Below, piece by piece: positions 9,876-44,147 of a DNA stretch of 64,000 bases (positions are counted from its first letter, which is position 1; each line of letters starts with the position of its first letter). A program made the position numbers and the translations under genes. This DNA is from a virus, in IMG/VR virus record IMGVR_UViG_3300045988_183134, positions 124,565 to 188,564 of that record; one strand, given 5' to 3'. Under the pieces are notes generated by a model, which was not told the DNA's origin, did not search any database, and was given only the letters and a program-made list of their open reading frames with translations.

Positions 9876-10760
9876 ATGCATACAGATAACAAAACAAAAC
9901 TGACCTGGTTCGGGATTCTTCGATTGATAGTAGGCGGAATCTTTCGGCTTATCAGCATCGTTGCACTTCTGGCTGTGCTTGGAATCAGCTATCTTCTGTT
10001 TCAAAATGTAAAGCAGACAAAGGAAACGCAGGACCTCAATGTTCAGCTGGTTGAGATGCGTCAGGAAGCAGAAACCGAAGAAGACAATACGGACTGGTCT
10101 AAGGGTATGTTGGACGTGAACCCGGATTATAAAGGCTGGCTCACGATTTACGGAACACAAATCTCCGAACCAGTCGTGCAGGGGGAAACAAACGAAACTT
10201 ATCTGCGCACCAACATCAATGGCGAACACGCTGAAGCGGGGACACTGTTCCTCGATGAAACCACTGATTTGACTCAGGATGGCAACCTTATCATTTACGG
10301 CCATAAAATGAACGACGGAACCATGTTCGGAACTCTTGATAAGTTTGAGGATGAAGAGTTTTTTGATAATAATGGAACAGTTTGCTGGGAAAGTGAGAAG
10401 GGCAAAGAGTACTATCAGATTTTTGCGCTCTTGGTTTTACCCGGATACAGTACAGCCCCTGATTTTATCGACCTTCAAGCCTGGAACAACGTTCTGGACG
10501 AAGAGCAAACTGCCGACATGCTCAACACGATTGCAGACCGAGCTTCTATCTTTAGAGGGGAATCCTTTAATCTTGAAAAGGACAAGTACATCTTCCTGGT
10601 GACTTGTGATTACAGCATCAACAACGGCCGCCTTGTTCTAGTGGGCAGGCGGCTCAGCAAGAAGAGCGAGACGGAAGACACCACAGAGGAAAGTACCGAT
10701 AACGCGGAAGAGGTTATATCGGAAGACGGGGCAGAGACGTCATCAGAACCAGAGGTGTGA
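9876..10760 (+). CDS. srtB: Class B sortase
   Basis: It has an N-terminal TM helix, NPDYKGWLTIYGTQISEPVVQ, the catalytic His in LIIYGHKMNDGTMFGTL, the Cys in FLVTCDY and a downstream Arg (LVLVGRR). Confidence 0.85.
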   Translation: MHTDNKTKLTWFGILRLIVGGIFRLISIVALLAVLGISYLLFQNVKQTKETQDLNVQLVEMRQEAETEEDNTDWSKGMLDVNPDYKGWLTIYGTQISEPVVQGETNETYLRTNINGEHAEAGTLFLDETTDLTQDGNLIIYGHKMNDGTMFGTLDKFEDEEFFDNNGTVCWESEKGKEYYQIFALLVLPGYSTAPDFIDLQAWNNVLDEEQTADMLNTIADRASIFRGESFNLEKDKYIFLVTCDYSINNGRLVLVGRRLSKKSETEDTTEESTDNAEEVISEDGAETSSEPEV

Positions 10761-12190
10761 AGAAGGAAATGAACATGGAGCAGAACGTAGCACTAGAAAT
10801 GTTCGGCTATTTGAAAGAACATTTTGTTGGTCTGGCAAAAGACAAAGGCGATGAGGTCATTGAAGGCAGTGAATTTATTCGTGTGACTCGCTCTAAAACC
10901 AATAATGTGTGGGATTGTGAAAAAGAAGTAAAGCAGCTGCTTGATAAAACAGGTGGTAACAATGTAAAAGTTAATTGCCCAACGGATTGTGTGATTATCA
11001 ACTATAGTTCAAAGGTTCAATCGCTGTATGTCGGGCTGTTTTCTGCGCGGGAAATGTCATACACTTACAGCGGTATTGAAAAAAGCTATTTTGAGATGCT
11101 TGCTACAAACGAAAGACGAGTAAAAGGTTACTCGTACAGCAAGGATGGCGTTTTGTATGCTCATTCAACGCTGCGCCGTAAGGTGAGTCGTTCAAAATCA
11201 AAGATACCAGAATACAATCCACCGTTTTCTATGAACTTTGTTTCAAAAGGGACGAAACATTGGCCTTGCACAATGAAAGACCTGTTCTCCGTTCGGGCAA
11301 TGGGCAGCAGCTTGTTTGATGATTTTATCCGGGCAATGATGCTTTACTGGGGTAAGTCGAATTCGATTTGGAACGACCTGGAAAAGGATTATGCCGGGAT
11401 GTCTGCCTATGGTGCCATTCCACTTTCGATAATCAAGGAATCTCACACAAGAAAAGAACTCATTGCAAAGTACTACGGGGAAGATAAAGCATTTAATCGC
11501 AACAATCGAGAGCCTATCGGATATGGCATTTTCTTGGCGCGGGCTGCAAGGGTTGTGAAACCGGAGGAACTTCAAAAGCTGTTTGGATACAATCCGGGCT
11601 TTGTATTTATTGGTAGGGCTAAAAACGATTTGGTTGAGCCGCTGGTTCGGTTCATTGGAAACAGCATCCCGGAAGAAGATAACAAACGATACTCGTCTAT
11701 CGATGCGAATATAAAAGATGCCATTTTAATGAGCTTCAAGAAGAGAAAGCTCATTCCGGTGTCTTTTAAGTCTGTAAATGGATTCGTCAAATGGCATGAT
11801 GAATTGGCTTTGACATATATATATTCTGCGGCTGAAAAAATGCAAATTAAAGAAGATTCTAAGTTCAACCAACTGAAGCTGCCGGAAGATTGTGTTAAAT
11901 TGACAACAACTAGGCAGATGGTGGAAGAAGGTATATTCCAGCATAATTGCGTTGCTTCATATATCGATAGGGTAAACAATGATTACTGTTCGATTTGGTC
12001 ACAGAGAAAAGCAGATGGGACGCGAAATACCATTGAAATCCAAATGAAAAACAAAAAGTACTGTATTGTTCAAATGTGTGCTTTTGCCAATCAACGCCCC
12101 TTGGAAGAGGACTATAAAAAAGTCAAATGCGCTGTTGATGAATGCAACAAGGCAAAGAAAAGAGAATTATTGCCTCCAACAGTTAGTTGA
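10757..12190 (+). CDS. PcfJ-like protein (conjugative-plasmid associated)
   Basis: The C-terminal region FQHNCVASYIDRVNNDYCSIWSQRK...TIEIQMKNKKYCIVQMCAFANQRP resembles the PcfJ domain. The start could be GTG 10757 or ATG 10769/10775. Confidence 0.65.
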   Translation: MKKEMNMEQNVALEMFGYLKEHFVGLAKDKGDEVIEGSEFIRVTRSKTNNVWDCEKEVKQLLDKTGGNNVKVNCPTDCVIINYSSKVQSLYVGLFSAREMSYTYSGIEKSYFEMLATNERRVKGYSYSKDGVLYAHSTLRRKVSRSKSKIPEYNPPFSMNFVSKGTKHWPCTMKDLFSVRAMGSSLFDDFIRAMMLYWGKSNSIWNDLEKDYAGMSAYGAIPLSIIKESHTRKELIAKYYGEDKAFNRNNREPIGYGIFLARAARVVKPEELQKLFGYNPGFVFIGRAKNDLVEPLVRFIGNSIPEEDNKRYSSIDANIKDAILMSFKKRKLIPVSFKSVNGFVKWHDELALTYIYSAAEKMQIKEDSKFNQLKLPEDCVKLTTTRQMVEEGIFQHNCVASYIDRVNNDYCSIWSQRKADGTRNTIEIQMKNKKYCIVQMCAFANQRPLEEDYKKVKCAVDECNKAKKRELLPPTVS

Positions 12191-17372: not shown

Positions 17373-18671
17373 ATGCTGATTGAGTTTACTGTAAAAAATT
17401 ATCGGTCTTTTCGAGACGAAGCAGCTCTCTCGATGGAAGCAACGGGAGCAAGCACGCTGAAAAGTGTGCTCATTCCATATGGCGGAATGCGGATTCTGCC
17501 GGGTGCTGCCATTTACGGGAAGAACGGTGGCGGTAAGAGCAATGTTATCCGAGCTTTTTGGCTTTCGGTTCAATTCATCAGAAACGCACAAAAGACACAG
17601 CATGAGAAAGCAGCTATCCCCGTTGTTCCGTTTGCATTGAATGACTACTCGGCATCTGAGCCGACAGAGTTTTCGTTTGTATATACCTTGGATGGAATCA
17701 GGTATTGGTATGCCTTTTCTGCCACAAAAGAAAAGGTATATGCTGAGTCGTTGTATCATGCACCGAAAGGGCAGAAGGCACTGGTTTTTGCTAGAGAAGG
17801 GCAGGAATTCACCTTTACCGAAGAGAAGGCTCGTAGAAATCTGATTAGTCAGGTTGTTGCCGAAAATCAACTGTTCTTTTCTGTAGCATGTACCATGAAC
17901 GACGTTGCCTGCTCCAAAGCTATGACTTGGTTCCGGGAGAAAATCTATTTTTCAAGAGACTATTCGGATATTCCCCGGCAGCTGCTTGAATATTCGAACG
18001 ACTCTAATATGCTGAAAGCGATTTCCGATTATGCGAAGGCTGCAGATGTTGGTATCGAAGATATGAAATTCGAAATCAATAGTAAAGAAATTAACGAAGA
18101 AGCTGATTTGCCTGCAAACATTCCCGAAGAAGTTAAAGCTGCACTTGTACAGTTCATGCATGTGCTTTCGGAAACCTCTAACAATTCGGAAACACACCTC
18201 AAGATGGGGCAGGTTAACGCAACATCCATGCATCAAGGCCAAAACAAGGACGGAACAAGCCATATGTTTTCGATGGAGCTGGCAGACGAGTCTGATGGCA
18301 CAAGAAAACTGATGGCCATTGCTCCTGCAATTGAGTCCGTGCTGTCAAAGGGCGGCCTTTTGCTGGTAGATGAAATCGAAAAAGAACTGCATCCTGCTCT
18401 GGTAGAGCTTATTGTTGCCAAATTCCAGAGCAAAAAGACAAACCCGAATGAAGCACAAATTGTCTTTACGACACACAACACCGACCTGTTGAGTATGGAG
18501 CTGCTGCGTAAAGACCAACTCTACTTTGTTGATAAGAACAAAGATGATGGTGCTTCAGAACTCTACAGCATCAGCGATTTTTCCACTCGCACGACCGAAA
18601 ATGTTCGCAAGGGCTATCTCCTCGGAAAATATGGCGCGGCTCCCAATGTCGAAATTGAGGAGGTTGAATAA
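17373..18671 (+). CDS. AAA_15/AAA_21-like (ABC/SMC-type) ATPase typical of abortive-infection or defence modules
   Basis: MLIEFTVKNYRSFRDEAAL, Walker A (YGKNGGGKSN), Walker B (LLLVDEIEKELHP), the FTTHNTDLL motif and the C-terminal YLLGKYGAAP are all present. Confidence 0.75.
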   Translation: MLIEFTVKNYRSFRDEAALSMEATGASTLKSVLIPYGGMRILPGAAIYGKNGGGKSNVIRAFWLSVQFIRNAQKTQHEKAAIPVVPFALNDYSASEPTEFSFVYTLDGIRYWYAFSATKEKVYAESLYHAPKGQKALVFAREGQEFTFTEEKARRNLISQVVAENQLFFSVACTMNDVACSKAMTWFREKIYFSRDYSDIPRQLLEYSNDSNMLKAISDYAKAADVGIEDMKFEINSKEINEEADLPANIPEEVKAALVQFMHVLSETSNNSETHLKMGQVNATSMHQGQNKDGTSHMFSMELADESDGTRKLMAIAPAIESVLSKGGLLLVDEIEKELHPALVELIVAKFQSKKTNPNEAQIVFTTHNTDLLSMELLRKDQLYFVDKNKDDGASELYSISDFSTRTTENVRKGYLLGKYGAAPNVEIEEVE

Positions 18672-21251: not shown

Positions 21252-22631
21252 TTACTTCTCATGGCTTTTCCTGATTCCAAAAACGTCATTTCCGTCCAGA
21301 TAAATGAAAGGCTTTTCATGCTCGTTGAATCCGTTGATGGCAACGAAACCGAGTTGCTTAACTTTGAGCTCTTTGATAGCCTCTACTTGCTGGGCCTCGT
21401 GATGAATCTCATCCAGAGTCATGGGCTGGGCATAGTACTTTGCTTCGAAAATCTCATAGCCATCAGCAAACTCTAAAGCAACATCGAATTCACCGTTCGT
21501 GCGGTGGACTGGGTCATCGTAATAGTAGCTGCCAATGTTGCGTACACCTTTCAACTTTCCAGAACGGACCTGCAAGCTGAAATAGTCACGGCAGATGCCT
21601 TCAAAACGTCGGGAGATGAAGTCTGTCAGAACGGGACTGATGTACTCGTCATAGAATGCCTTGGCTCCTAGCACTTGGAGTGCGCTACTGTTCTTATATA
21701 CAAAGGTGAAGTAGAATCTCAGAAGATTGTCGTTGATTTCAAAAGCAGACTTTTTATTGTCGTTCAGCCTGTTAATGGGATTATTTCGGGAAAGAATCTC
21801 TAAGTCAAGCAGGGGCTTGATTTGCTTTGCGAGGTTGCCGGTCTTCCTCGCATCCAGTTTATCTTCGATTTCGGTATAGCGCTTCTTCCCATTTCCAATG
21901 ACAGAAAAGATACGTTCTGCATTGATGCTTACCGAGTAGTCCGAAAGCAGCAGCTGGCTGGCATACAGATACACTGCGCTCGTAGGATTGAGAACGGTGT
22001 TGATAATATTTTCTCGGAGAGTGGCTTCAGGGTTTAGTGCTTGATTAACAAATGGGGAACCGCCAAAAACGGCATAATGGCCAACTTTGTCGTAGGGTGT
22101 TTTGTCAGGATAGAACTTGGCAGCATCCAGATAACTCAACTCATTTAACTTGATTGTGACAGCAAACCGACCATATAGAGCGTTCTTCTCTTGCAACGCA
22201 TCCTTCATAATACCGATGTGAGAACCAGAAAGGATAAGTTCGATGTTAGAGAGTCGGTTGTCGATAATGCTCTGGAAGATGGAATCAACCGCAGCGGAGT
22301 CCGTCATGGATTTGAGATAGGGGTACTCATCGATGACGACAACAATCTTTTGGGGCAGCGCATTGAGATAAGTGAATACATCCTGCAGCGTGCTAAAGCT
22401 CAGAGGCACAGGCAGAACCTTGGCACGGACAAGCTCCTGCACAAAGCCATTGATATTGTCCTGCATTATGCTTTTCAAGCACTCAAAGTACACCTTCTGA
22501 TACTGGCAGCTCTCAAGTGCTTTTCGAATGAGAGTAGTCTTTCCAACGCGGCGCTTGCCGTAAACCATAATGGCCTTTCCGATATAATCTTCCTGCAAAA
22601 GAGCCAGCTCTTTCTCGCGGCCAATAAACAT
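21252..22631 (-). CDS. ATPase with an archaeal-ATPase-like N-terminus and a DUF234-like C-terminal region
   Basis: MFIGREKELALL...VYGKRRVGKTTLI (Walker A), VVVIDEYPYL (Walker B) and a long C-terminal domain are present. Confidence 0.7.
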   Translation of the reverse strand: MFIGREKELALLQEDYIGKAIMVYGKRRVGKTTLIRKALESCQYQKVYFECLKSIMQDNINGFVQELVRAKVLPVPLSFSTLQDVFTYLNALPQKIVVVIDEYPYLKSMTDSAAVDSIFQSIIDNRLSNIELILSGSHIGIMKDALQEKNALYGRFAVTIKLNELSYLDAAKFYPDKTPYDKVGHYAVFGGSPFVNQALNPEATLRENIINTVLNPTSAVYLYASQLLLSDYSVSINAERIFSVIGNGKKRYTEIEDKLDARKTGNLAKQIKPLLDLEILSRNNPINRLNDNKKSAFEINDNLLRFYFTFVYKNSSALQVLGAKAFYDEYISPVLTDFISRRFEGICRDYFSLQVRSGKLKGVRNIGSYYYDDPVHRTNGEFDVALEFADGYEIFEAKYYAQPMTLDEIHHEAQQVEAIKELKVKQLGFVAINGFNEHEKPFIYLDGNDVFGIRKSHEK

Positions 22632-26338: not shown

Positions 26339-26718
26339 TATTCTTCCGCCCCAAAAAGCCCGTTTCAAAAGAAAAGCTAATGCCTAAGCTTTCAAAAACT
26401 TCTTGCAAATAATATACCATATATTTGACTGCTAATTTTCACAAGTTTTCCTCCCCACGTTGTCGTAATTGCACAAAGACCCATATGCAAAGAAGAAGCC
26501 GTCCCACAAAGGCTCGGCTTCTTTTTTCTATTTGTGTCGTTGAAAAGTCATTTTTTACTTTCCGCGAAATTTGTTTTTCTGGCTTATTGCCAAGGCTTGC
26601 GAATCGCATATGATAGAAAATGTACGGAAGCAAAAAGCAATGCGTGCAGGGGCGTTGAAGCGTGGCGCTCAGCCAAAGTGCCTGCAAAAACGCCGCTGTA
26701 CAGAAAGGAAATCGCATT

Positions 26719-29700
26719 ATGCAGAAAATTATGCAAAAAGTGACCTCCGTAGCATTGGCCGCCAGCATGCTGTTTTCGATGATGTCTACGACCGCACTTG
26801 CGTTCGCAGACGAAACCGGAGACAGCACCTCTGTTTCGACCGATGTTACGGATGCCCCGGCTGCGGAAGAGGCAGATGCGGTGGATTCCGGTAGTTCAAA
26901 TGATGCCGACTCCTCTGATGCCACTTCCGCGCCGACTATCACGGATGTTGTGGACCTGACGCATGAATCGTATGAGGATACCAACTCTAACGATGAAACT
27001 ACTCAGGATGCAACGTCTGATGTGGTGGATGGGGAAGAGACTTCTGAATCGGATGCCAACGACACAGAAGTCTCTACTCCTGAAACTGCAGAACCCACTT
27101 TCGTCGGTTTGCAGACAGTAACGCCGGAATACGGCGACAAGCTAACCGCAAATGTCGGCGATTCTGTCACTCTGGATGCTCTGCTGAATCGTGACGATGT
27201 AGCAGTCACCTATCAGTGGCAGCGCAAGCAGAACTTTGCTGTTGATACGGCGTTGGCTCTCTACAACTACGAAGAGGATGAGCCTACCTGGTACAACTTC
27301 GTTATCGAAGATACCACAGAGCACACCGTCCTTGAAGAGCGTCCCGACTATGTCTGGCAAGGCTGCGAGATGTACTACGCTGTAGTCGATGCACTCGATG
27401 AAATCGGTGCTGATTCCAGCGATGTCCAGATTGCATACCACACTCCCAACTTCGTTCTGGATGGCTACACCATCACCGCTGCCAATGCCGAAGACGGCAC
27501 CGTTGAAGTCTATGCTTCTAACGGAGAGAGCACCTACACCGCACATCTCAACGATGACGGCAAGTGGGAGTTCGGTGATGAAGCTGCTGCCAGCCAGGAT
27601 ACGGATTGGCAGGATATTGAGGGCGCAACGGAATCCACCTACACTTTTGAAGTGACGGAAGATGACCTGTCCGCCAACTATCGCTGCCGCATTGTTGTGA
27701 CCGATGAAGCATACCGCGAGGAAAACTTCAAGGCTCTCGAGGATTTGGGCAATGAGCTGACCGACGAGGACAAGGCCGGAGATATCATTCTCCAGACAGC
27801 TCAGTTCAGCATCAGCCTGCCGGAAGACGAGAACAGCAGTGACGTTGCTACTCAGAACATGCCTGATACGGTTGTTATGCTGGCAGACACGTTCTCTTCT
27901 CGCTCCGCTGACAGCATTGCCATTTCCTCGGATAACCAGTGGATTACGGGTCTTAACGGCAACTACGAGTACATCACCAAGAACATGTACGACCAGGTGA
28001 CTGAATGGTTCAAGGCTGGTAAGATTGATAAAGCCACCGCAGACCGTTACTGGACTCAGATTGGCGGTGCTTGGAGTGGCTCAAAGGTCGGAACTGCCAA
28101 TGTTCTGGATGATAACGGCTTCCCCACTGGTGCAACTCGTCAGTACATGGAGTTCCCGCTGACGGATGGCAATATGTTGGAAGTCAACTCTGAATGGTAT
28201 GGTCAGACCGTTTATTTCCGTCCACACAACAACAGTAACGATTGGAATCTGACTGGCACTGCGGTCAATGTTCCCGCTTACACTGCTGTTCTTCGCAACA
28301 ATGGTAGTTATGGCACTGGCGCATCCGGTACAAAATACAAGGATGCTGTTGTGTTTTTGAATCCTTGGGTATCTGATGCAGGTCGTATGTATGCAAATTT
28401 CATCAATTTTGTATCAGATAACGGTTGGCTGCGTAACACAAGTGGAAGTGGCCATTTGAGTCAACATATTACAGTTCTTTCAGTTAAAGCTGAGCAATTC
28501 AACCAGGACCCTGACCAGTATATGATGGATGCTGAGGGTAACTACCGTATCGACTCTATTGGCTGGGGCGTCTGCGTTAATCAGGAACCTGACCTTTCCG
28601 GTAAAGCCTATTATGCTATCAAGGCATTCCTGAGCCAGGGCTACGGTATGTGTATCGGCCACGATACAATGTATGCCTATGCTGGTTCCTGGTATGATGC
28701 CCATGAAGCTGGTTACACCGACCCCGGCTCTCGTGACTATTACGAGGGTGGTCGTTATGGCCCTGATAAGAATGATACCTCTACCCGCTATTACGTTCTT
28801 AACAGTGTTCCTAACATTGACAATGGCCATTGGAACATGAATGCTCTGATGGGTGCGAACGGTGGTAACATCGATTCTGGTACAGTTCTTCCTACTGACG
28901 CTATCTCGATGATTCTGTCTACCGGTGGTTCTCACAGTTCCTACGGCAAGGCTGGTATTATGTACGGCTCTGACCAGCTGAGTGTGAAACTGAAGCCTTA
29001 CTCCAATTCTCAGGCTCAGAGCACTGTCAAGTATCGTAATCCTACCAACTTCCCATATGATGTGCCGACTGGAACCACACTCGAAGCTTCCAAGACTCAC
29101 TCCAACTCGCAGGTTGCTTTCGGCCCTATCTGGGTTGAATACGCTGGCGGTAACGTGACTGGTGCTGAGTTCGGTTACAATCCGGACCCGACAACCAAGA
29201 CAATTACCGATGAAGAGACTGGTCAGTCCTGGTTTGGCACAAGCAACTTTTACTTGTCTGGTACTGGCAACTTCCTGATGAACCAGATTGGTCACTTGCC
29301 GGACAACAAAGCGACCAAGGCCGAAGCTTCTCTGTTCGCCAACACTGTCATGTACATCTCTCAGCGTAAACAGTGCGAGATTTGTGCAGCACAGCAGAAT
29401 GGCCAGGAAGATGTCCATTTCGTGATTCGTGTTTCCTCTGTCAACGCGCAGCAGGTTCTGTCCGCTTTGCAGAATGGCGGTACTTTCTGGTATCCGCTGA
29501 ATGGCTGCTATCAGCTGACGGATGACCTGACTCTGCCGGAAGGCTGGAAGCCCATCAAGAACTTCTCCGGTCACTGGAACGCAGATGTCTATAAGGTGAA
29601 GCTCGCAAGCAACAATCAGCCTGTGTTCGATAACACAAGCGTGACTGCAAACGGTATGTATACCAGCGGCAAGAACAACGGCTGGAACTTGGGTTCTGAT

Positions 29701-32700
29701 ATGACCAAAGGTACGCTGCCGATTCTGAAGCTGGACAATCAGCCGGATGTTCGCATCACCGGTGTTGCCCGTGTTGTTGGTGACCTGAATGCATTGTTCC
29801 CGACCTCTTACGGCGTAACCGATTATACCGGTTACAAAGTTGTTGTTCATGGCTCTGATGGCGTTGACTATAACTGTGTTGTAAACAGCGATAGCAAATA
29901 CGTTATCTCGAACCTGCCGACCACCGGTATGATGCGTGCCGATGTCATTGACAAGAGCGGCAACAAGGTCACTCAGTTTGGCATGATTACGGTCGATGTT
30001 CCGAACCATTTCTGGAACGACACTGAAACCCATCCTCTGCAGCTGATGACCCCAACCGCTGACCCGATTGATGACTATAAGGACTGGGAAGGTCCGGTCA
30101 ACAAGACGGTTGACAGTAAGCTGTATTACAATGAACAGCTGAAAGCCTCCGATGTTACCTGGTATTACCGCATTATCTCCGTTGACAACCAGGTTGGCGA
30201 TTGGGTGAAAATCGGTAATCCTGGCACTTCCTTCGATACCTCTGACGGCACTGTGAGCGGCAAGATTAACAGCCTGACGTTCACTGCAGCAACGGACAGC
30301 GACTTGCCTTATACGACAAGCTCTGTAAGTTACTCCAAGTTGGATTACACCACGAACCGTATTCAGTTCAAGTGCGAATACAACGTGAGTGGTACTGTAT
30401 ATTCCAGTATGGATAAGGCTGAGGATGGCCGCAACGGTTATGTTGACGTTGAAATCCGCCCGATGTATATCGAGCAGGCTTTTGACCGCCGCATCTCCGT
30501 TGGTGGCAGCACTTCCTTCTCCTTCGATGCGTTCTACTGGAAGGGTGTTGAGGATGGCCTGACCTACGAGGTCCAGTACCGTGATGCAAGCGGTAACTGG
30601 GTTGCCGTTGGCAGTGATTCTACTCTGTTCCCGTCCTCTAAGTACAAAATCAGTTATGTAACCAAGACTGATGATAATGATGCTTTGGGCGGTGGTGTCT
30701 GGTATCCGTCCGATTTCTGGGTTCCTGATTCCTTCACTGGCAGTGATGCGAAGATGAATGCAGGTAAATCTACATTCAATAAGCACACCACTGTTACGCT
30801 GGAACTCTCGAATGCAGCGATGGATTGGGATGGCACGGATTTCCGCTGTGTCTTCACCTATAAGTCTACCGGGCATACCATGAGCACCGATACTACCACG
30901 GCAAACGATATTGCACAGGCTCGTACTGGTCACCTTATCATCTATGCACCGCCCATTGAGATGACGCCATTGAAGGCTCAGTCTCTGCTGCTGAATAACT
31001 ACGATTCCAGCAACGGCAACCTTGCATGGACAACCCCGGCTTCCAACCCGAATAATGGCCGTAGCCCGAAGGAAATTCCTTTGGATGCTATCAATCCTGA
31101 TAAACTGGGCCAGGGTGGTAAAGCCTATGGCGCAGCAGGTGATAACAAGGCCATTTATACCACAAAGATTACCTATTACGGTAATAAAGACAGTGCTCCC
31201 ACCATTAAGTGGTTGTACAGTGATGTGGCAGGCGGCGGCAGCCTCTCTCAGTTCAAGGATGTCGGTGATGCCGTCACATTGAAGTACAGCGATGTTGGCA
31301 AGAAGATTGGCAACATCAGCAAGCTGAACAGCCGAGTGGCTGAACTTGAAAAGAGTTTCATGTCCAGCGGCAAAGCATTCAATAAGTTCAGCGGCTACAT
31401 TAAGCTGGAAGCAATGTATCCGACTGAATCCAAGGACCTGAACAACAGTTCTTATGCGGAATGGAACGCTATCGTGTCTCTGTACATTGATAACGCTACC
31501 AACCCGATGGATTACGGTAACACGCACTTCTATTTCCGTTGCCAGGCTGAAGCTCAGTACATGCAGAACTGGGATAGCGCCGATATGAAGCCCTATACCA
31601 CTGCTGCAACTGATGCCTACAACTTTAATCGTGACGTGAACTCCAGCAATCCGGAAGACCATCTGTATAAGGATATCAGCCAGTCCTCTTACGGCGCTGA
31701 ACTGGTTTTGGATTACAACATTTCCATTAAGGCCAATGTTCCGAACAAAGCTACGAAGAAGCGTAATACTATTACGACTGCAAATGGCAGCGCAAAGGAC
31801 ATTTCGACCCTGCGGAATGAAATTTCCGAAATCAACACAGCTCTGAATAACGGCGGTGCGGTTTACAACTACAAAGACCTGGCGATTATCGCTCCGAATG
31901 GTCTGCGTTACATGGAAACCTACTTCATCGCGGGGAATGGCGTAAATAACCGCTCCGGTATCGATTCCCGCGACACTGTGGTTATCGATAACAAGATTCG
32001 CAACTCTGACGGTAAGTGCTTTACGGACCTCTTCGAAAAGGTTACGGATGATGAATTCGTCAACAAGCGTCAAGGCTTCGCTTACCGTTCTAAGAGCGGC
32101 AACACGATTCCGAAGGAAACTTGGGAATGGTTCTGGCGTAATGCTATCTACTACATCTGCTATGATGCTCCGACCACAAAGGCCAACATGGACCAGGTGT
32201 ATTTCTACATTGATGAACAGAACAGCGGTGCATCCTCTTCTCAGGTCTACTCCGAACCCAACAGCACTTCGAAACCCTATTCTATGTACACTGCTCCGTA
32301 TACCGGTGAGTATATCATCACTCTGAACGGTGCAGGCGGCGGCGTTGATAACCAGTTTGGTCTGTCTCCCGAACGCACTTCGCTTGGCGGCAAGACCACG
32401 ATTCGCGTCAAGGCGGAAAAGGGCGCGACGCTCTATTTCGTCAACGGCGGTGCTGGTTCTCATGACCCGACACACTACGTCAACGGTGCATCGAGCCCCG
32501 ATGCTAACGCAAAAGTTGTGGTCCAGGGCGGCTACAACGGCGGTGGTAACGGCGGTATCATGATGCAGGAGCGCTACGCTCACTGGAGCTTGAAGGGCGC
32601 TTCTGGCGGCGGTGCTACTACCGTGGCTGTCGGCATCATCGGCACAGGTCGTTTGGCTGAGTACGGCGATGAAAACACGGCTAAGAAGTATGTTCTGGCT

Positions 32701-35637
32701 GTTGCAGGCGGTGGTGGTGCTAACCAGCACGGCGCTTGCGATGCTACTGGCGGTTCCGATAACAACGGCGTCCTGCATGTCTGGGGCGGCCAGCTTGGCG
32801 GCGGTGGTCCGTTTGGCCAAGGTATGTCTGGCGGCGACTTCTCTATGTTCCTCGGTGGTATTACTGATGGTTCTTCTGAGGTTGGTGTTGAAGGCCCTGG
32901 CGGTGGCGGCGGCGGCTGGTACGGCGGCTACGCTAACGAGTCCTCTAAGCTCGCCAATGCAGATGGCTGGGGCAGCTGTAAGCGCGACGGCAATGGCGGT
33001 TTGAGCTGGGCTGCAGGCGTTGGTACTACTCTAACTGATGCAGGCGGACACAAGGTTCAGGTCTTGGAAGTCAACATCAGCAATGATGGCGGCGGTTCCG
33101 GTTCTGAGCAGGCTGGTAATTCCAGCATTGAGCTGGTCAAATCCTCTGTTTCTCGTTTCTCTCGTAACGGCAAGAATGCTTTCGATACCGCATACGAAGA
33201 TACCGACCCCGATTCCGGTATTGAGGAACAGCATGTAACCATTACTATCACTGCAGCCAATAAGCTGTATGATGGCAACCCCGATGAAGCTTCCATCAGC
33301 GTTTCCGGCAACCTGTCTTCTACCGATATGGACAATATCGTGAAGAACACCACTATCGTCTATGCTAACCGTAAAGGTACATTGACGAAGGCTCCAAGCG
33401 ATGCGTCTACGGACAAGAACCAGTATCCGCGCTCCGATTGCGGTTCCTATACCGCAACAGCAAAATGTACGGTGTCGGGTTACATCATCACATATCGCTA
33501 CGAGAACACGAACCCCGGTCATACTTATGACGGCAGCAGTCCGAGCGGTATTGGTGATACCGTCAAGTTCGATATCTATCCTCGCGGATTGACGATTATC
33601 GGTACTGGCGATAAACCCTACGACCGCACCAGCAAGGCAACTCTGGAAAATGTTCATATTGCTTCTGGCGGCTTGATTGCGAAGGACGAGAACACTGTGA
33701 AGCTGAGCACCACTACGGTGACTGGTAACTACACGGTTGATGGCAAGAATGTCAGCGATGCTGGCGGTCCCTATGTCGTCATCCGAACCAGTGAACTCTC
33801 TCTCGTTGGCAACAGCGCAGGCAACTACTACATTGAGAAGGAAGACTTGTCTGGCTCTATCACTCCTCTGGATTTGTACGTTCACAGTATTTATCTGGAA
33901 GACCCGACCTATCCTCGCAACGTCAAACACTATGACGGCACGACCAAAGCCACCATTAAGGATATCCTGATTGATGGCGTGCTTGAAGGTGATGACGTTA
34001 AGATTAAGGAAGAAACCCTTCCCGGCAATTATAAGACCAAGGATGCTGGCCAGAAGCTGAATGCAGATGGCACGGTAAGCTCCAACTGGCCTTATGAGTT
34101 GGACGAGAATCCGATTACGGCAGATGCTCATCCGACACTGACTGGTAAGGATGCCAAGAACTACCGTATCACAAAGGAGAAGTATTCCGGCGCTATCGCA
34201 CGCGCCAACCTGACCGCACAGGTTGCAAGTTGGCGTGGATTGTATGGTGACGGCGTAGGGGAGAAGCCCTGGCATGACAAGAAGGCTTACGGTTACGGTA
34301 CTGCAGCTTCTGCAGGCTGCTGGCTGGAAATCGATGGTCTGGTGCAGGGTGATACCTTGACTTTGGACCAGAGCTACAAGAAGTCTTATTTCAAGACTCT
34401 GGTAAGTGGTCATGAAAGTCTTGTTCCTGATGAATCGACTCCTGTTGGCACTTATCCGTTAACTTATGTTGGCTTGACTGAAGCCAATTACCCCGTTCTG
34501 AAGAACTATATTGTCATGGTTCTGAATGGCCGCTTTGTCGTTGACCCGCGTCCGCTGCATGTGACGGTTCTTGACAGCGATAAGATTATCTACAACGAGA
34601 ACCCGAACTTCCATGTGAACATTCAGATGGAAGATGATGATGCAAATCTGATTGATGTCGTGAGCGACGTTGACGCCACTCCGATTCTGGATGCAAAGCT
34701 CAAGGCGAAAGATACAGTCAGCAGCGTCTTGTACGTTGCGGGCGGTAATCCCTCCAACCTGACTCAAGAATTTGTGGATGCCTACGATTATCGTAAGCAG
34801 GAAAATGTCAAGGAAAGCAAGACCAATATCCCGTTTGTGACCGATTGCACCATCAGCTCCCTGCCTCTGTACGCAGATGGTACGAGCACCGATGATGATT
34901 TTGAGTGGAACTACGAGGATAAGACCTGCGATTTCTGCCATTATAACCACAAGCTTCTGGCTCCGTATCTGGTAACTATCAACACCGACACCAAGAGTGG
35001 TCCTGCATTGGATGTTCATACGGTCGTTAACCCGAATGGTGAAACGGTTCGCAACTACGAGCTGATTATCCATGATGGCGGCCTGTATGTGCATCCGGCT
35101 CTGCTGAAGGCTACGGTTCCTCTGTACGTCTGTATGTATGGCAACACCACAAGTGGTGAGGTCAAAGAGCCTACCAACTATCGCATCACGAACTACTCTA
35201 CTGTGGCTATCCAAATCAAGAATATCAAGGCCAATGGTCCTTGGCTGATGCGTGATATGCCTGGCATGGAGTACTACCCTGACGGCGAGTATGGCAACTC
35301 GGTATACGACATGACAAAGAACCGTCTGCGCCGTGGCGAGCTGTACATGCGTCTGCGCGATACCGTCCTGACTCAGGGTGATAACGCAATTGACCATAGC
35401 GATACGGCTTGGGTCATTCCGAAAGCTACCGGCGATTTCATCAACAACAACATCACTGGCCGCGCAATGCAGGTGCCTATGGCAGTCTACATTGCAACCG
35501 GTAATGTGAATGAATCCGGTGTCTGCACTCCGGTCACGAAAGTGACCTACACGATTGCTCCGTACGGTGGCGTGATGCCGAACGATGCGGACTTCGAGAA
35601 AGTGCAGTCTCAGCCGTGGCTCAAAGACGCAAAATGA
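26719..35637 (+). CDS. Giant secreted surface protein (2972 aa) with a glycine-rich GRD-like block and YDG/MBG-like repeats
   Basis: The start is set at the ATG after a gaaagga RBS and gives the signal peptide MQKIMQKVTSVALAASMLFSMMSTTALAFA. A Gly-rich block follows (YTGEYIITLNGAGGGVDN...GGYNGGGNGG...GPGGGGGGWYGGY). Repeats contain YDG/YDR (KLYDGNPDEA, KPYDRTSKATL, KHYDGTTKATI). The C-terminal ATVPLYVCMYG module is shared with 5645-7231. Confidence 0.85.
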   Translation: MQKIMQKVTSVALAASMLFSMMSTTALAFADETGDSTSVSTDVTDAPAAEEADAVDSGSSNDADSSDATSAPTITDVVDLTHESYEDTNSNDETTQDATSDVVDGEETSESDANDTEVSTPETAEPTFVGLQTVTPEYGDKLTANVGDSVTLDALLNRDDVAVTYQWQRKQNFAVDTALALYNYEEDEPTWYNFVIEDTTEHTVLEERPDYVWQGCEMYYAVVDALDEIGADSSDVQIAYHTPNFVLDGYTITAANAEDGTVEVYASNGESTYTAHLNDDGKWEFGDEAAASQDTDWQDIEGATESTYTFEVTEDDLSANYRCRIVVTDEAYREENFKALEDLGNELTDEDKAGDIILQTAQFSISLPEDENSSDVATQNMPDTVVMLADTFSSRSADSIAISSDNQWITGLNGNYEYITKNMYDQVTEWFKAGKIDKATADRYWTQIGGAWSGSKVGTANVLDDNGFPTGATRQYMEFPLTDGNMLEVNSEWYGQTVYFRPHNNSNDWNLTGTAVNVPAYTAVLRNNGSYGTGASGTKYKDAVVFLNPWVSDAGRMYANFINFVSDNGWLRNTSGSGHLSQHITVLSVKAEQFNQDPDQYMMDAEGNYRIDSIGWGVCVNQEPDLSGKAYYAIKAFLSQGYGMCIGHDTMYAYAGSWYDAHEAGYTDPGSRDYYEGGRYGPDKNDTSTRYYVLNSVPNIDNGHWNMNALMGANGGNIDSGTVLPTDAISMILSTGGSHSSYGKAGIMYGSDQLSVKLKPYSNSQAQSTVKYRNPTNFPYDVPTGTTLEASKTHSNSQVAFGPIWVEYAGGNVTGAEFGYNPDPTTKTITDEETGQSWFGTSNFYLSGTGNFLMNQIGHLPDNKATKAEASLFANTVMYISQRKQCEICAAQQNGQEDVHFVIRVSSVNAQQVLSALQNGGTFWYPLNGCYQLTDDLTLPEGWKPIKNFSGHWNADVYKVKLASNNQPVFDNTSVTANGMYTSGKNNGWNLGSDMTKGTLPILKLDNQPDVRITGVARVVGDLNALFPTSYGVTDYTGYKVVVHGSDGVDYNCVVNSDSKYVISNLPTTGMMRADVIDKSGNKVTQFGMITVDVPNHFWNDTETHPLQLMTPTADPIDDYKDWEGPVNKTVDSKLYYNEQLKASDVTWYYRIISVDNQVGDWVKIGNPGTSFDTSDGTVSGKINSLTFTAATDSDLPYTTSSVSYSKLDYTTNRIQFKCEYNVSGTVYSSMDKAEDGRNGYVDVEIRPMYIEQAFDRRISVGGSTSFSFDAFYWKGVEDGLTYEVQYRDASGNWVAVGSDSTLFPSSKYKISYVTKTDDNDALGGGVWYPSDFWVPDSFTGSDAKMNAGKSTFNKHTTVTLELSNAAMDWDGTDFRCVFTYKSTGHTMSTDTTTANDIAQARTGHLIIYAPPIEMTPLKAQSLLLNNYDSSNGNLAWTTPASNPNNGRSPKEIPLDAINPDKLGQGGKAYGAAGDNKAIYTTKITYYGNKDSAPTIKWLYSDVAGGGSLSQFKDVGDAVTLKYSDVGKKIGNISKLNSRVAELEKSFMSSGKAFNKFSGYIKLEAMYPTESKDLNNSSYAEWNAIVSLYIDNATNPMDYGNTHFYFRCQAEAQYMQNWDSADMKPYTTAATDAYNFNRDVNSSNPEDHLYKDISQSSYGAELVLDYNISIKANVPNKATKKRNTITTANGSAKDISTLRNEISEINTALNNGGAVYNYKDLAIIAPNGLRYMETYFIAGNGVNNRSGIDSRDTVVIDNKIRNSDGKCFTDLFEKVTDDEFVNKRQGFAYRSKSGNTIPKETWEWFWRNAIYYICYDAPTTKANMDQVYFYIDEQNSGASSSQVYSEPNSTSKPYSMYTAPYTGEYIITLNGAGGGVDNQFGLSPERTSLGGKTTIRVKAEKGATLYFVNGGAGSHDPTHYVNGASSPDANAKVVVQGGYNGGGNGGIMMQERYAHWSLKGASGGGATTVAVGIIGTGRLAEYGDENTAKKYVLAVAGGGGANQHGACDATGGSDNNGVLHVWGGQLGGGGPFGQGMSGGDFSMFLGGITDGSSEVGVEGPGGGGGGWYGGYANESSKLANADGWGSCKRDGNGGLSWAAGVGTTLTDAGGHKVQVLEVNISNDGGGSGSEQAGNSSIELVKSSVSRFSRNGKNAFDTAYEDTDPDSGIEEQHVTITITAANKLYDGNPDEASISVSGNLSSTDMDNIVKNTTIVYANRKGTLTKAPSDASTDKNQYPRSDCGSYTATAKCTVSGYIITYRYENTNPGHTYDGSSPSGIGDTVKFDIYPRGLTIIGTGDKPYDRTSKATLENVHIASGGLIAKDENTVKLSTTTVTGNYTVDGKNVSDAGGPYVVIRTSELSLVGNSAGNYYIEKEDLSGSITPLDLYVHSIYLEDPTYPRNVKHYDGTTKATIKDILIDGVLEGDDVKIKEETLPGNYKTKDAGQKLNADGTVSSNWPYELDENPITADAHPTLTGKDAKNYRITKEKYSGAIARANLTAQVASWRGLYGDGVGEKPWHDKKAYGYGTAASAGCWLEIDGLVQGDTLTLDQSYKKSYFKTLVSGHESLVPDESTPVGTYPLTYVGLTEANYPVLKNYIVMVLNGRFVVDPRPLHVTVLDSDKIIYNENPNFHVNIQMEDDDANLIDVVSDVDATPILDAKLKAKDTVSSVLYVAGGNPSNLTQEFVDAYDYRKQENVKESKTNIPFVTDCTISSLPLYADGTSTDDDFEWNYEDKTCDFCHYNHKLLAPYLVTINTDTKSGPALDVHTVVNPNGETVRNYELIIHDGGLYVHPALLKATVPLYVCMYGNTTSGEVKEPTNYRITNYSTVAIQIKNIKANGPWLMRDMPGMEYYPDGEYGNSVYDMTKNRLRRGELYMRLRDTVLTQGDNAIDHSDTAWVIPKATGDFINNNITGRAMQVPMAVYIATGNVNESGVCTPVTKVTYTIAPYGGVMPNDADFEKVQSQPWLKDAK

Positions 35638-35778: not shown

Positions 35779-36393
35779 TTATGGTATTGGAAGTGCTCCG
35801 TATTCCTTTGGCATATCAACTGTTTCCCAGACAACTTTTTTGGCTGAATATACTATTTCAGTATATTGACTTTCTTCGCGGTACTTTCTATATGTAACAA
35901 GTATTCTACTTGTGCTACCTTTTATCATCTTTCTTATGTCGCCTTCCAACACGGTATTGGGGACATAGCGTCCTTGCCCACCGTTTCGAACAAAACCGAC
36001 GCAAGCACTAATTGACCCGGCGAGTTTGTCAGTATATAATTTGGGATGGGTCATGTCATAGTCTCCAACCATCTTTGCCGAGAGATGTTTTTGAACTAAA
36101 TCTGGTAAAACACGTAATTTCATTTCTGTTGTACCGTCTGCCGCAAATTCAAAATCCGTTTCAGACAAACGCTTGTCACAACACATACTGAGAAAATTGT
36201 TTGCTCCGATTTCTTTATTGCTTAATTTGAATCCAGTCATATGCAGAAAGTTGCTGCTATCGAATGTTACCTCTAAACCGCGTACAACTTTATGCTTGTC
36301 TGCCGTAACAAATAAGAGACTTCTTCCGGCCAAGTTCTCTTTGTAAGAGATTGCACAAGAGAAAACAATGTTTAGTGCATCTTTTTTTGTCAT
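35779..36393 (-). CDS. 204-aa protein, candidate toxin/RNase of a type III TA-like module
   Basis: This is a clean ORF. Its context is promoter, repeats, terminator, then ORF. The FLHMTGF motif weakly recalls barnase/EndoU/RelE-like (PBECR-type) nuclease domains. This comes from memory only and is not verified. Confidence 0.6.
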   Translation of the reverse strand: MTKKDALNIVFSCAISYKENLAGRSLLFVTADKHKVVRGLEVTFDSSNFLHMTGFKLSNKEIGANNFLSMCCDKRLSETDFEFAADGTTEMKLRVLPDLVQKHLSAKMVGDYDMTHPKLYTDKLAGSISACVGFVRNGGQGRYVPNTVLEGDIRKMIKGSTSRILVTYRKYREESQYTEIVYSAKKVVWETVDMPKEYGALPIP

Positions 36394-36423
36394 TATGAGT
36401 TTCCTGCAACTTTCTGCGTTTTA

Positions 36424-36474
36424 CCAAAAATAAAAGGACACCTACAACACCGTAGTGCTGTCCGATGTCCTTTT
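36424..36474 (-). terminator. Hairpin with U-tract between the tandem repeats and the 204-aa ORF (terminator/attenuator)
   Basis: On the minus strand the sequence reads aaaaggaca-tcggacagcactacggtgttgtagg-tgtcctttt followed by atttttgg. Confidence 0.55.
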
Positions 36475-36481
36475 GTGACTG

Positions 36482-36578
36482 GTTTTATCGTTGTCCGCCA
36501 ACCGACAGGCCCTTACGTCCTGCATCTCTTTCGAGTTTTATCGTTGCTCGCCAACCGACAGGTCCTTACGCCCTGCAT
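36482..36578 (-). ncRNA. Two 44-nt tandem repeats (53-nt period), candidate antitoxin RNA
   Basis: ttttatcgttgtccgccaaccgacaggcccttacgtcctgcatc (36482-36525) and ttttatcgttgctcgccaaccgacaggtccttacgccctgcatc (36535-36578) match at 40 of 44 positions. No ORF is present. Confidence 0.55.
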
Positions 36579-36634
36579 CAGAACGGATTTAAGGTGCCAG
36601 TCCACCAGCAGAATGTCGTCTGCTTTCCTACTAA

Positions 36635-36663
36635 TAGTATACACAACCCAGGCTAAAAATGCA
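36635..36663 (-). promoter_or_regulatory. Sigma70-like promoter TTGCAT-17-TATACT reading into the repeats
   Basis: On the minus strand the -35 is the reverse complement of 36658-36663 and the -10 is the reverse complement of 36635-36640. Confidence 0.5.
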
Positions 36664-36876
36664 ATATTTATTTACAAATAATGTTTAACCAATTTGCAAT
36701 TTAGCCGTAAGCCAAGACTTGGATGATACTACGCGATTTCACAAACGTCGTCGTTTTATGGTCCATAACGGTGAATGAAACCAGCTTCGACTCTAACTAA
36801 CTGAATGGCAGCTGCTCCAATTCTGGAGTGGCTGATTTTTTTGCGCATAACTTCTGAAAGAATCTCCGGTGAACTA

Positions 36877-42609: not shown

Positions 42610-44147
42610 GTGCCTTGCATGAGCACTTGTGTTTGTGTTCTCAGTAAGAATGGCGAACGCCTGATGCCGACTATCCGTCTTGGCAAGGTGCGCCATCTTC
42701 TGAAAGACGGAAAAGCAAAAATTGTTAAGCATCATCCATTTACTATTCAGTTACTGTATGACAGCAAAACAAACACGCAGCCTATCGAAATCTGCGAGGA
42801 TGTTGGATACAACTACATCGGCATCAGTGTGAAAAGCGAATCTCACGAATATGTGTCTGCCCAGTATGATACATTGCAAGACGAGAAAAGCTGTCACGAT
42901 GCTTGCCGTAGAATGCGCCGAACTCGCAGAAACAGGCTACGTTACCGCCAAAAGCGCTTTGACAACCGCAAACGTGACAAAGGCTGGCTTGCACCCTCTC
43001 TTAAACATAAGAAAGAACTCAACGTCAATGTCATTAAAATGTATTGCGAAGTTGTGCCTATTACGCATGCAACCGTTGAAGTTGGCTCTTTCGATACGAT
43101 GCTTGTAAAAGCAATCGAGGAAGGCAAAGCCACACCAGAAAGCGCAGATTATCAAAAAGGTCCCCGCTACAAGTTGGCAACTCTGCGGGAGGCGGTATTC
43201 TATCGGGATAACTACACTTGCCAGGTTTGTGGGCGCAAAGCTACCGAAGGTGCAATTTTGCACGTGCATCACATGTTTTATTGGAAAGGTCGCCATGGCA
43301 ATAGTCTCAGCGAGCTTATAACAGTATGCGAGAAGTGCCATACACCAGCTAACCATCAAAAAGGCGGCAAGCTCTATGGATTCGGTGAAGATATAAAGTT
43401 TGCCAACCTTTCTGGTGTAGCATTTATGAACACTGTACGCTGGCAAATCGTTAATGAACTTTACGCTGCTTTTGGAAAGCCGTTCGTCACATTCACTTAT
43501 GGCGCGATGACCAAGGAAAAGCGAATTGCCCTTCATCTTGAAAAGAGTCATAACAACGATGCGTATGCAATGGGCGAGTTTCATCCAAACTGCCGCTGTA
43601 CGTTTGAACATTATGAAAAGGTAAGGCGTAATAATCGCATCCTTGAAAAGTTTTATGATTCTCGCTACATTGACATTCGTACAGGAGAAATAGCTACTGG
43701 AAAAGAGCTCTTCAACGGTAGAATCAACCGCAGCCATAAAAAGGATTCTGAAAATTTGCACAAATACCGTGGAAAAAGGATTCGTAAAGGCTATCGTGCG
43801 CTACGTCGCAAGAAAGTGGCCCTCAATCCCGGTGATTTGGTTTCTCTCAACGGAGAAATTCTTGTTGTCCATGGCACTCATACCAAAAAGAATGGTTCTG
43901 TAAACGTGGAATTCAAAACTCCATCGAGAGGTGGTAAAAAATCCGCAAGCCTTAAAAAGCTGAAAATTGTTAAAACGTCAAACCTCATGCATTCTGCGTG
44001 GACTAAAGTATCTTAAAAAACTAAAGAAAGGAGACGCGGGGTATTTGGACTTACTAAGTGTGCCTCAAATGTACTCTTAGTCAACGCATTCCTCACCGCC
44101 TAAGTCGCAAGCGACTATAGACGGTGTACCCTGCGCACAAATTTTAT
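42306..44147 (+). mobile_element. IS200/IS605-like element carrying iscB and its omega-RNA (no tnpA)
   Basis: The left-end hairpin is caaccccgcctaaaccggctcgccggttatagacgggg (42316-42353). The right-end motif lies at 44086-44134. ttttattgg / ttttatgg is present at the two borders. Confidence 0.6.
42619..44016 (+). CDS. iscB: IscB RNA-guided nuclease (PLMP, split RuvC and HNH)
   Basis: An aaaggag RBS is present. The N-terminus is VLSKNGERLMPTIRLGKVRHLLKDGKAKIV. RuvC-I is EDVGYNYIGISV, the HNH is CQVCGRK...HVHHMFYW...CEKCH and RuvC-III is SHNNDAYAMG. Confidence 0.85.
   Translation: MSTCVCVLSKNGERLMPTIRLGKVRHLLKDGKAKIVKHHPFTIQLLYDSKTNTQPIEICEDVGYNYIGISVKSESHEYVSAQYDTLQDEKSCHDACRRMRRTRRNRLRYRQKRFDNRKRDKGWLAPSLKHKKELNVNVIKMYCEVVPITHATVEVGSFDTMLVKAIEEGKATPESADYQKGPRYKLATLREAVFYRDNYTCQVCGRKATEGAILHVHHMFYWKGRHGNSLSELITVCEKCHTPANHQKGGKLYGFGEDIKFANLSGVAFMNTVRWQIVNELYAAFGKPFVTFTYGAMTKEKRIALHLEKSHNNDAYAMGEFHPNCRCTFEHYEKVRRNNRILEKFYDSRYIDIRTGEIATGKELFNGRINRSHKKDSENLHKYRGKRIRKGYRALRRKKVALNPGDLVSLNGEILVVHGTHTKKNGSVNVEFKTPSRGGKKSASLKKLKIVKTSNLMHSAWTKVS

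Follow-up and report, generated by a model that had tools for sequence, protein, structure and literature searches.

A probable type III-like toxin-antitoxin cassette combining a triple-pseudoknot RNA with a PBECR4-domain protein

The 64,000-nucleotide (nt) stretch of DNA considered here ('the window', numbered from its first letter; positions 124,565 to 188,564 of IMG/VR virus record IMGVR_UViG_3300045988_183134) carries on its minus strand, between 36664 and 35734, a compact region in which a promoter is followed by a structured RNA of ~150 nt, a terminator-like hairpin and an open reading frame (ORF) for a 204-amino-acid (aa) protein of the PBECR4 family. It is probable, with appreciable room for doubt, that this region is a self-contained type III-like toxin-antitoxin (TA) cassette of a family not yet described. 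The RNA and PBECR4 occur together at every close homologue locus examined and at the majority of the distant loci, a pattern that, on comparative sequence grounds, suggests a new type III-like family. A first inspection of the letters (the sequence-only reading) had proposed a type III TA-like module, and that proposal draws support from gene order, from the pseudoknot character of the repeats, from the terminator and from the RNA-protein linkage across homologues. The elements of the cassette are as follows.

36664-36636, minus strand: sigma-70-type promoter, with -35 TTGCAT at 36664-36659, a 17-nt spacer and -10 TATACT at 36641-36636.
36579-36535 and 36526-36482, minus strand: two direct repeats of 45 nt each, identical at 41 of 45 positions, with 53-nt spacing and an 8-nt gap.
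36474-36426, minus strand: terminator-like hairpin, apex C(UACG)G, then UUUUAUUUUU, between the RNA and the ORF.
36393-35779, minus strand: 204-aa ORF with an ATG start, 32 nt 3′ of the U-tract, encoding the PBECR4-domain protein, a putative toxin.
35764-35734, minus strand: second terminator-like hairpin, at the end of the cassette and common to the terminator region of a convergent gene for a 2991-aa protein.

These coordinates lie 0-2 nt from those first given. The promoter that had been picked out by eye is present, displaced by 1 nt, and the hairpin with its U-tract and the ATG-initiated frame of 204 codons are likewise as described; for the tandem repeats the two copies and the 53-nt period stand, with the length now 45 nt in place of 44 and the identity 41/45 in place of 40/44. 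The -35 element has three of six consensus matches, which is why a generic promoter scan missed the promoter. At homologous loci a -10 box ends 6-14 nt 5′ of the first RNA hairpin (P0) in 31 of 34 cases, accompanied by a -35 element in 28, and from this conserved position just ahead of P0 it follows that the RNA forms the 5′ end of the transcript. Tandem Repeats Finder did not report the repeat when run on the window, likely because two copies score too low. A 21-nt pattern for the repeat core nonetheless occurs twice there versus 0.05 occurrences expected by chance, and a chance repeat is excluded by these pattern statistics together with the covariance-model score given below. The hairpin between RNA and ORF has a minimum free energy of -25 kcal/mol (z = -6.2, with none of 200 shuffles equally stable), and across loci it is retained and covaries (helices 10-11).

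The sequence-only reading took the RNA to consist of the two repeats. That picture did not survive, since the regions upstream of homologues show the repeats to belong to a larger conserved element, a single fold of ~150 nt at 36624-36475 with three hairpin-loop pseudoknots and strong covariation. From 5′ to 3′ its parts are the following.

36624-36607, minus strand: P0, the 5′ hairpin AGCAGA-CGACAU-UCUGCU, first structured element of the transcript.
36606-36584, minus strand: partial 'unit 0', GGUG-[GACUGG]-CACC, with the A-tract UUAAA and the tail UCCG.
36579-36532, minus strand: repeat unit 1, a variable hairpin CAGG..CCUG at 36575-36559 and then an H-type pseudoknot at 36555-36532.
36526-36477, minus strand: repeat unit 2, a variable hairpin at 36522-36506, the hairpin GUUG-[GCGGA]-CAAC at 36502-36490, the linker GAUAAAA and a terminal CCAGUC.

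One design is common to the three pseudoknots: a hairpin of 4 bp, with base pairing between its loop and four nucleotides just past an A-rich linker (UAAAA or GAUAAAA). In unit 1 the stem is GUUG/CAAC with a one-nucleotide loop G, and the loop CGAG pairs with CUCG past the linker GAUAAAA. For unit 0 the partners are distant, its loop GACUGG pairing with CCAGUC at 36482-36477 (helix P1) and its tail UCCG with the loop CGGA of unit 2 (helix P2); unit 2 accordingly has its loop engaged with the 5′ UCCG, and its terminal CCAGUC closes P1 (helices 3, 4, 8 and 9). With the first and last pseudoknots swapping tails, the molecule closes on itself, the middle pseudoknot being local. The four substitutions between the two repeats are, as had been suspected, not random with respect to the fold: the loops CGAG and CGGA address different partners, CUCG and UCCG, and the A.G to G.A swap lies in the apical part of the variable hairpin. 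The two variable hairpins within one locus are more alike than those of different loci (0.79 versus 0.65, permutation p < 1e-4), as is expected if both fit one partner; homogenisation between the repeats would look identical.

The structure was derived by hand and tested on an alignment of 24 loci, in which standard pairs occupy 95.4% of alignment cells, versus 31-49% when the partners are slid by one to three columns. Two-sided changes are seen at 40 of the 56 pairs, and none of 500 shuffles reached the observed values. Across the same 24 loci P0 has two-sided changes at all six of its pairs, with 93% of cells paired. The helices of unit 0 (2, 3 and 4) are 97-100% paired, with the compensatory changes GACCGA/UCGGUC, GGUUGA/UCAACC, UUCG/CGAA and CCCA/UGGG, and those of unit 1 (5, 6 and 7) are 94-100% paired, the loop-tail helix having two-sided changes at each of its four pairs. 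Considered together, the three hairpin-loop/tail pseudoknot helices are each 97-100% paired, with compensatory changes. A covariance model (CM) built from the nested part of the fold scores 160 bits on the window (E = 4e-37, 36624-36475) and finds no second copy in it. Searches of Rfam 15 assigned the window RNA to no family, either with 5 kb of sequence at E ≤ 1 or with 300 nt at E ≤ 10, and neither the INPHARED phages nor the PLSDB plasmids yielded a blastn match to it. Membership of a known riboswitch class (preQ1, SAM-II or another H-type pseudoknot aptamer) was considered and rejected, given the lack of an Rfam match and the fully paired loops.

What ties this RNA to the protein is its recurrence. 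Each of the 32 close homologue loci (L001-L032, with a single genome taken for each species; mostly Clostridia of gut and rumen; protein identity 38-77%) has a CM match immediately upstream of the gene and on its strand, and six further loci from other sources likewise have the RNA there (L176, L177, L180, L184, L188 and L189). It also precedes two distant homologues, one in Erysipelothrix phage phi1605 (38% identity; RNA at 77 bits) and the other on Macrococcoides bohemicum plasmid p19Msa0383-1 (27.6% identity; RNA at 64.5 bits), the latter annotated 'PBECR4 domain-containing protein'. The long-range helices are rewritten in both, as GCUUGA/UCAAGC, CUUG/CAAG and UUGG/CCAA in phi1605 and as GAUCGG/CCGGUC, UCUG/CAGA and CGGA/UCCG in p19Msa0383-1 (P1 of the distant loci L227 and L228 being GCUUGA/UCAAGC and GAUCGG/CCGGUC respectively). 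The sequence-only reading had asked whether homologues are preceded by repeats and a terminator, and for the 32 close loci, the six others and the two distant ones the answer is an upstream RNA of this type. There is a single unit at one locus (L028) and a second RNA copy at another (L025). Among the loci examined the only PBECR4 without RNA upstream is a 5′-truncated fragment (L190), from which it follows that the dependence runs from protein to RNA.

A separate observation concerns L021:3790-4640, where a second complete cassette stands directly 3′ of the first PBECR4 gene. Its promoter precedes an RNA whose helices are rewritten (UCUG/CAGA and GGAG/CUCC), and after this comes a PBECR4-like ORF that is short, split and degenerate, lacks the NFLHxTG histidine motif and may be a decaying or inactive paralogue.

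The protein had first been placed in no recognised family. It is PBECR4 (Pfam PF18813; E = 3.1e-27, 96.6 bits versus a cut-off of 27), full length and stand-alone, the match spanning residues 10-186 and model positions 2-188 of 188, and an initial hint of a PBECR-type nuclease was to this extent well placed. The family comprises 1620 clusters at 50% identity (E ≤ 1e-3), nearly all of them solo proteins of ~200-230 aa. PBECR domains were defined by computation alone by Iyer, Burroughs, Anand, de Souza and Aravind in 2017, who found them in polyvalent proteins of phages and conjugative elements and as solo genes, mentioned no RNA partner, described an active site in which a His and a C-terminal Thr/Ser are conserved, and suggested that the domains target specific host or phage RNAs (PMC5512222). 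Invariant across 24 homologues of the window protein are H51 and T53 (motif NFLHxTG), T147 (PNT), R163, T167, R169 and K170; the invariant His, Thr and Arg are candidate catalytic residues of what is predicted, from the family match, to be a metal-independent BECR-fold endoribonuclease and putative toxin. As so far defined (PF18813), PBECR4 is a predicted RNase only, and the literature found gives it no RNA partner, TA role or terminator-separated leader.

Resemblance to the toxins of established type III systems was sought by several routes. A profile search of all PDB sequences returned no ToxN, no CptN and no RNase of any kind, just a chance-level Csm5 (E = 0.24), and no model of PADLOC, NCBIfam or PHROGs matches the protein. 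An AlphaFold2 model (pLDDT 79.5, pTM 0.79, with residues ~100-160 weak) retrieved two unnamed viral proteins and nothing informative from BFVD by Foldseek. As neither sequence nor structure searches of the PDB match it to ToxN or CptN, the protein is not a relative of ToxN, CptN or TenpN; Pfam gives PBECR4 only, and the early impression that the toxin is unlike those three holds.

As of 2025 the type III TA systems are AvcID, AbiF and the trio toxIN, cptIN and tenpIN, in which the toxins have a common fold (PMC12283969). With these the present cassette has in common a tandem-repeat RNA (two units and a partial third) upstream of an ORF on the same strand and under one promoter, a terminator between RNA and ORF, and a repeat unit that is a pseudoknot. 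CptIN of Eubacterium rectale and Coprococcus (PDB 4RMO) is similarly ordered: its promoter is followed by roughly two RNA repeats in tandem, of 45 nt in CptI, then by an intrinsic terminator and a toxin ORF. Each CptI repeat folds into an H-type pseudoknot whose L1 is a single base and in which a long loop rich in A follows the minor groove of stem 1 (PMC4627078). Closed-ring logic and gut Firmicute hosts are further likenesses. The differences are that the toxin here is PBECR4 and not ToxN/Kid-like, with no profile or Foldseek match to 4RMO, 2XDB or other PDB chains, that each unit, of 52-53 nt, has a variable hairpin in addition, and that ring closure comes from base pairing of a single transcript with itself, through tails swapped between first and last pseudoknot (processing here being inferred). 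ToxIN and TenpIN share with it a repetitive pseudoknot RNA, a terminator, an endoribonuclease (here predicted) and a conserved A-stretch, and differ in toxin family and fold, in an RNA that is far more conserved family-wide in the present case, and in its near-fixed repeat number of two. Non-identical repeats are known from TenpI (PMC12283969), and CptI and TenpI both have the 4-bp stem 1, the one-base L1, the A-rich loop and a stem 2 made by the loop (PMC4627078, PMC12283969).

If the cassette works as a type III-like system, its constitutive-looking promoter would drive a ~150-nt RNA with the 5′ hairpin and three pseudoknots. Because the strong hairpin and U-tract are followed by 32 promoter-less nt before the ATG, PBECR4 can be made by terminator read-through only, and RNA would therefore exceed protein. 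Free PBECR4 would be toxic, and binding by the RNA would hold it inactive; the enzyme would probably cut the RNA at its A-tracts, and the resulting units of 52-53 nt would remain paired with one another. Were transcription to halt, for instance on phage infection or on loss of the element, the RNA would decay and the RNase would be released.

A different tandem-pseudoknot RNA accompanies a second PBECR4 subfamily. The homologue at locus L033 (26% identity) gives no match to the window-RNA CM; 271 proteins related to it were searched and nine distinct loci examined (L033, L191, L194, L197, L200, L203 and L213-L215). In all nine a promoter comes first, then one or two tandem units of ~33 nt, a small hairpin with CUAAAAAUC after it, a terminator hairpin and finally the ORF, so that the arrangement of repeats plus terminator extends, as the sequence-only reading had thought worth asking, to repeats of another sequence. 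The unit is GGUC-[GGNNNGRA]-GACC-UWAAA-[CYCNNNCC], and its loop and tail are complementary and covary (mean longest helix 5.8 for own versus 4.3 for cross pairs). One such unit scores 28.7 bits (E = 1.8e-4 in a 301-nt search) with Rfam GP20-b (RF03003), below the gathering score of 36.2, a similarity that hints at one RNA superfamily for GP20-b and the second-subfamily units. The window RNA has no match to GP20-b even at E ≤ 10. GP20-b consists of two consecutive short hairpin-UAAAA units in Firmicute phages (Weinberg et al. 2017) and is annotated as a candidate cis-regulatory motif of phage GP20 genes, function unknown. The second-subfamily short unit was found in 27 viral contigs, 22 of which have no PBECR4 in the contig sequence. 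Attention is also drawn to single or double short pseudoknot-UAAAA units lying between or beside tRNA genes, in phage contigs whose available sequence has no PBECR4 (L205:3922-3942, L217:4983-5036 and L209:3528-3548); these could be decoys or processing signals.

For the RNA of the window type, a scan for the unit-2 core found 14 viral and at least 120 metagenomic loci, 108 of them with enough flanking DNA. Among the matches listed, an intact PBECR4 starts ~65-100 nt downstream of the RNA at 53 of the 108, the gene is truncated or frameshifted at 11 (~10%), and PBECR4 is missing from 44 (~40%). Many of these 44 orphans are RNA genes in full, in which the promoter, both units and the terminator hairpin are present and unrelated or convergent sequence comes next; orphan RNAs retain the fold (97.8% paired, with 14 compensatory pairs), and six-frame searches of viral loci with orphan RNAs revealed no hidden PBECR4 elsewhere. 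Truncated PBECR4 genes beside intact RNAs make up a decay pattern that is typical of TA loci. Two orphan RNA genes with promoter, two units and terminator (L088:7523-7740 and L158:2337-2554) stand between a GNAT acetyltransferase/SecB-like cluster, perhaps (the assignment carries a query) a TAC-type TA system, and an ATPase_2/DUF234 gene. The ORF after the latter gene we take to be HsdM-like, by its N-terminal sequence alone, and the setting of both orphans is a defence island. At L039:451-1282, on a viral contig, a window-type RNA has downstream of it an ORF of 51 aa and a toxin gene of the Doc/Fic family, again with no PBECR4.

A transcription-attenuating riboswitch is laid out in the same way, from promoter through structured RNA and terminator to ORF, and the present RNA might be a cis-acting leader or attenuator, riboswitch-like or protein-binding (the protein perhaps being PBECR4), which sets read-through of the terminator and is not an antitoxin. 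High conservation and complexity of the RNA would be in keeping with such a role, as would the occurrence in phage 5′ untranslated regions (UTRs) of related short units that resemble the cis-regulatory GP20-b. We nevertheless consider it unlikely. The orphans keep covarying fold, promoter and terminator with no downstream PBECR4 to regulate, which argues for a function in trans; by eye, no antiterminator pairing that overlaps the terminator stem is seen in the window; the pseudoknot loops, being fully paired, leave no obvious ligand pocket; and the sole gene ever controlled would be a predicted toxin that has no other partner.

The commonness of orphan RNAs and the maintenance of their structure lend themselves to another explanation, that the RNA is the primary molecule, a small RNA of mobile elements or phages or a ribonucleoprotein scaffold, and PBECR4 its processing or partner enzyme, no toxin being involved. 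In one version of it the PBECR4 RNase recognises pseudoknot-UAAAA tags on phage transcripts. Related units in phage tRNA arrays and 5′ UTRs, on contigs with no PBECR4, a conservation greater for RNA than for protein, and the proposal that PBECR domains act on specific host or phage RNAs (PMC5512222) all sit comfortably with this explanation. That PBECR4 is never without the RNA at the loci examined, bar the fragment at L190, is however what would be expected of a toxin needing its inhibitor, truncated PBECR4 genes adjoin intact RNAs, and the contexts are TA or defence islands. The probability that we attach to it is low, without being trivial.

Several points count against a type III-like TA cassette as such. 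RNase activity, toxicity and antitoxicity are inferred from the family assignment and from analogy. Foldseek of the AlphaFold2 model against the PDB reached a best E of 0.79 and no solved BECR or ToxN-like structure, and since the model matches no PDB structure the BECR assignment rests on Pfam and on the profile of Iyer et al. 2017. The U-tract 3′ of the hairpin is not equally strong at all loci, and at many it is weak. The RNA is the better conserved of the two molecules, with a mean identity to the window of 76% versus 52% for the protein. The RNA makes one closed fold with exactly two units in most loci, unlike the repeats of ToxI, which vary in number and are nearly identical to each other, and could function as an intact molecule. 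To the high proportion of loci with RNA and no PBECR4 is added the position of the short pseudoknot units ahead of phage structural genes, in their 5′ UTRs, and between tRNA genes of phages, which, together with the likeness to GP20-b, means that the RNA class may have a role independent of PBECR4.

As to the setting of the cassette, the following further features of the window are relevant.

10757-12187: PcfJ-like ORF.
17373-18668: ORF for an AAA_21 (AbiEii/OLD-type) ATPase.
21255-22631: ATPase_2/DUF234 ORF.
26662-35637, plus strand: 2991-aa ORF converging on the cassette, with a signal-like N-terminus and Gly-rich and repeat regions.
39250-36869, minus strand: IS200/IS605 insertion sequence (IS), with tnpA at 39188-38778, a gene for a 565-aa TnpB/Cas12f-like protein at 38752-37055 and the right end at 36869.
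42610-44013: RRXRR-HNH ORF.

The identical protein occurs in 3810 blocks of public assemblies (human gut), and in the longest sister contigs, of 220-270 kb, synteny around the cassette is constant: it lies between a convergent gene for ~2970 aa and, at its opposite flank, genes for Big_2, Dam, RRXRR-HNH and an actin-like segregation protein. The 2991-aa ORF is conserved in all the 220-270-kb contigs and has no Pfam family on record in them. PcfJ, AAA_21, ATPase_2/DUF234 and RRXRR-HNH, with the actin-like segregation gene of the sister contigs, suggest that the window is part of a large plasmid-like mobile element, one of a gut bacterium, with several defence-type genes. The neighbourhoods of homologues contain serine recombinases and Eco57I-type restriction-modification, BrnTA, GmrSD, ParE and SNF2 genes and are mobile or defence contexts; no conserved protein neighbour or partner of PBECR4 appears in those that are annotated.

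With a Y1 transposase gene and the 565-aa TnpB/Cas12f-like gene directly upstream in the same orientation, the repeats could in principle belong to the IS200/IS605 element, as TnpB omega-RNA or right end or as a mini CRISPR-like array for the 565-aa protein, and have nothing to do with the ORF. The chance of this we put close to nil. The IS is present in some sister contigs only, others having the empty site, in which GGTTGATTTTAG runs directly into CGGAGATTC and the identical cassette is nonetheless found; by this empty-site alignment an omega-RNA or CRISPR-like array of the IS is ruled out, and the IS is a later, unrelated insertion outside the module. Its right end at 36869, with the hairpin GCTCGGCAATTCAATTGCCGAG, lies 205 nt upstream of the cassette promoter and so outside the cassette, and the ~185 nt between the tnpB stop and that end would be the omega-RNA site. 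Repeats of 45 nt with 8-nt gaps are no repeat-spacer array. In every related locus listed the RNA accompanies PBECR4, and no IS is beside the cassette in annotated neighbourhoods. The RNA is independent of IS605; proximity to the IS, once taken as a sign of accessory or defence context, is no evidence of it, the insertion being polymorphic. (The TnpB/Cas12f-like protein is, at 565 aa, unusually long.)

Our literature search found no link of PBECR4 or of BECR toxins to an RNA antitoxin. What is new is a type III-like arrangement whose putative toxin has an unrelated fold, and a single-transcript, tail-swapped triple pseudoknot absent from Rfam. If the type III-like reading is correct, a family with a BECR-type toxin fold means that the solution of a repeat-pseudoknot RNA arose, or was adopted, independently. 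The uncharacterised PBECR4 domain gains a testable RNA partner, and to the known RNA structures is added a covariation-supported fold of ~150 nt with three interlocked pseudoknots. A functional handle on GP20-b-like phage RNA motifs becomes possible, and plasmid p19Msa0383-1 of Macrococcoides bohemicum and Erysipelothrix phage phi1605 offer cultured entry points.

A wider reading, offered tentatively and more doubtful than not, is that pseudoknot-UAAAA RNAs are a widespread recognition or inhibition module for PBECR4-family RNases in Firmicute mobile elements, and that the orphans are decoys by which phages and plasmids disarm PBECR4-based abortive infection. Those orphans would take in the complete RNA genes of defence islands, the units of phage 5′ UTRs and tRNA arrays and probably GP20-b. 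Blower and colleagues are said to have reported in 2012 that phages can carry antitoxin mimics (pseudo-ToxI), of which orphan RNA copies would, by analogy, be the counterpart. Were this so, there would be an RNA-based anti-defence arms race like that of pseudo-ToxI at family-wide scale, and the tail-swapped triple pseudoknot would be a new way to build a closed toxin-RNA ring.

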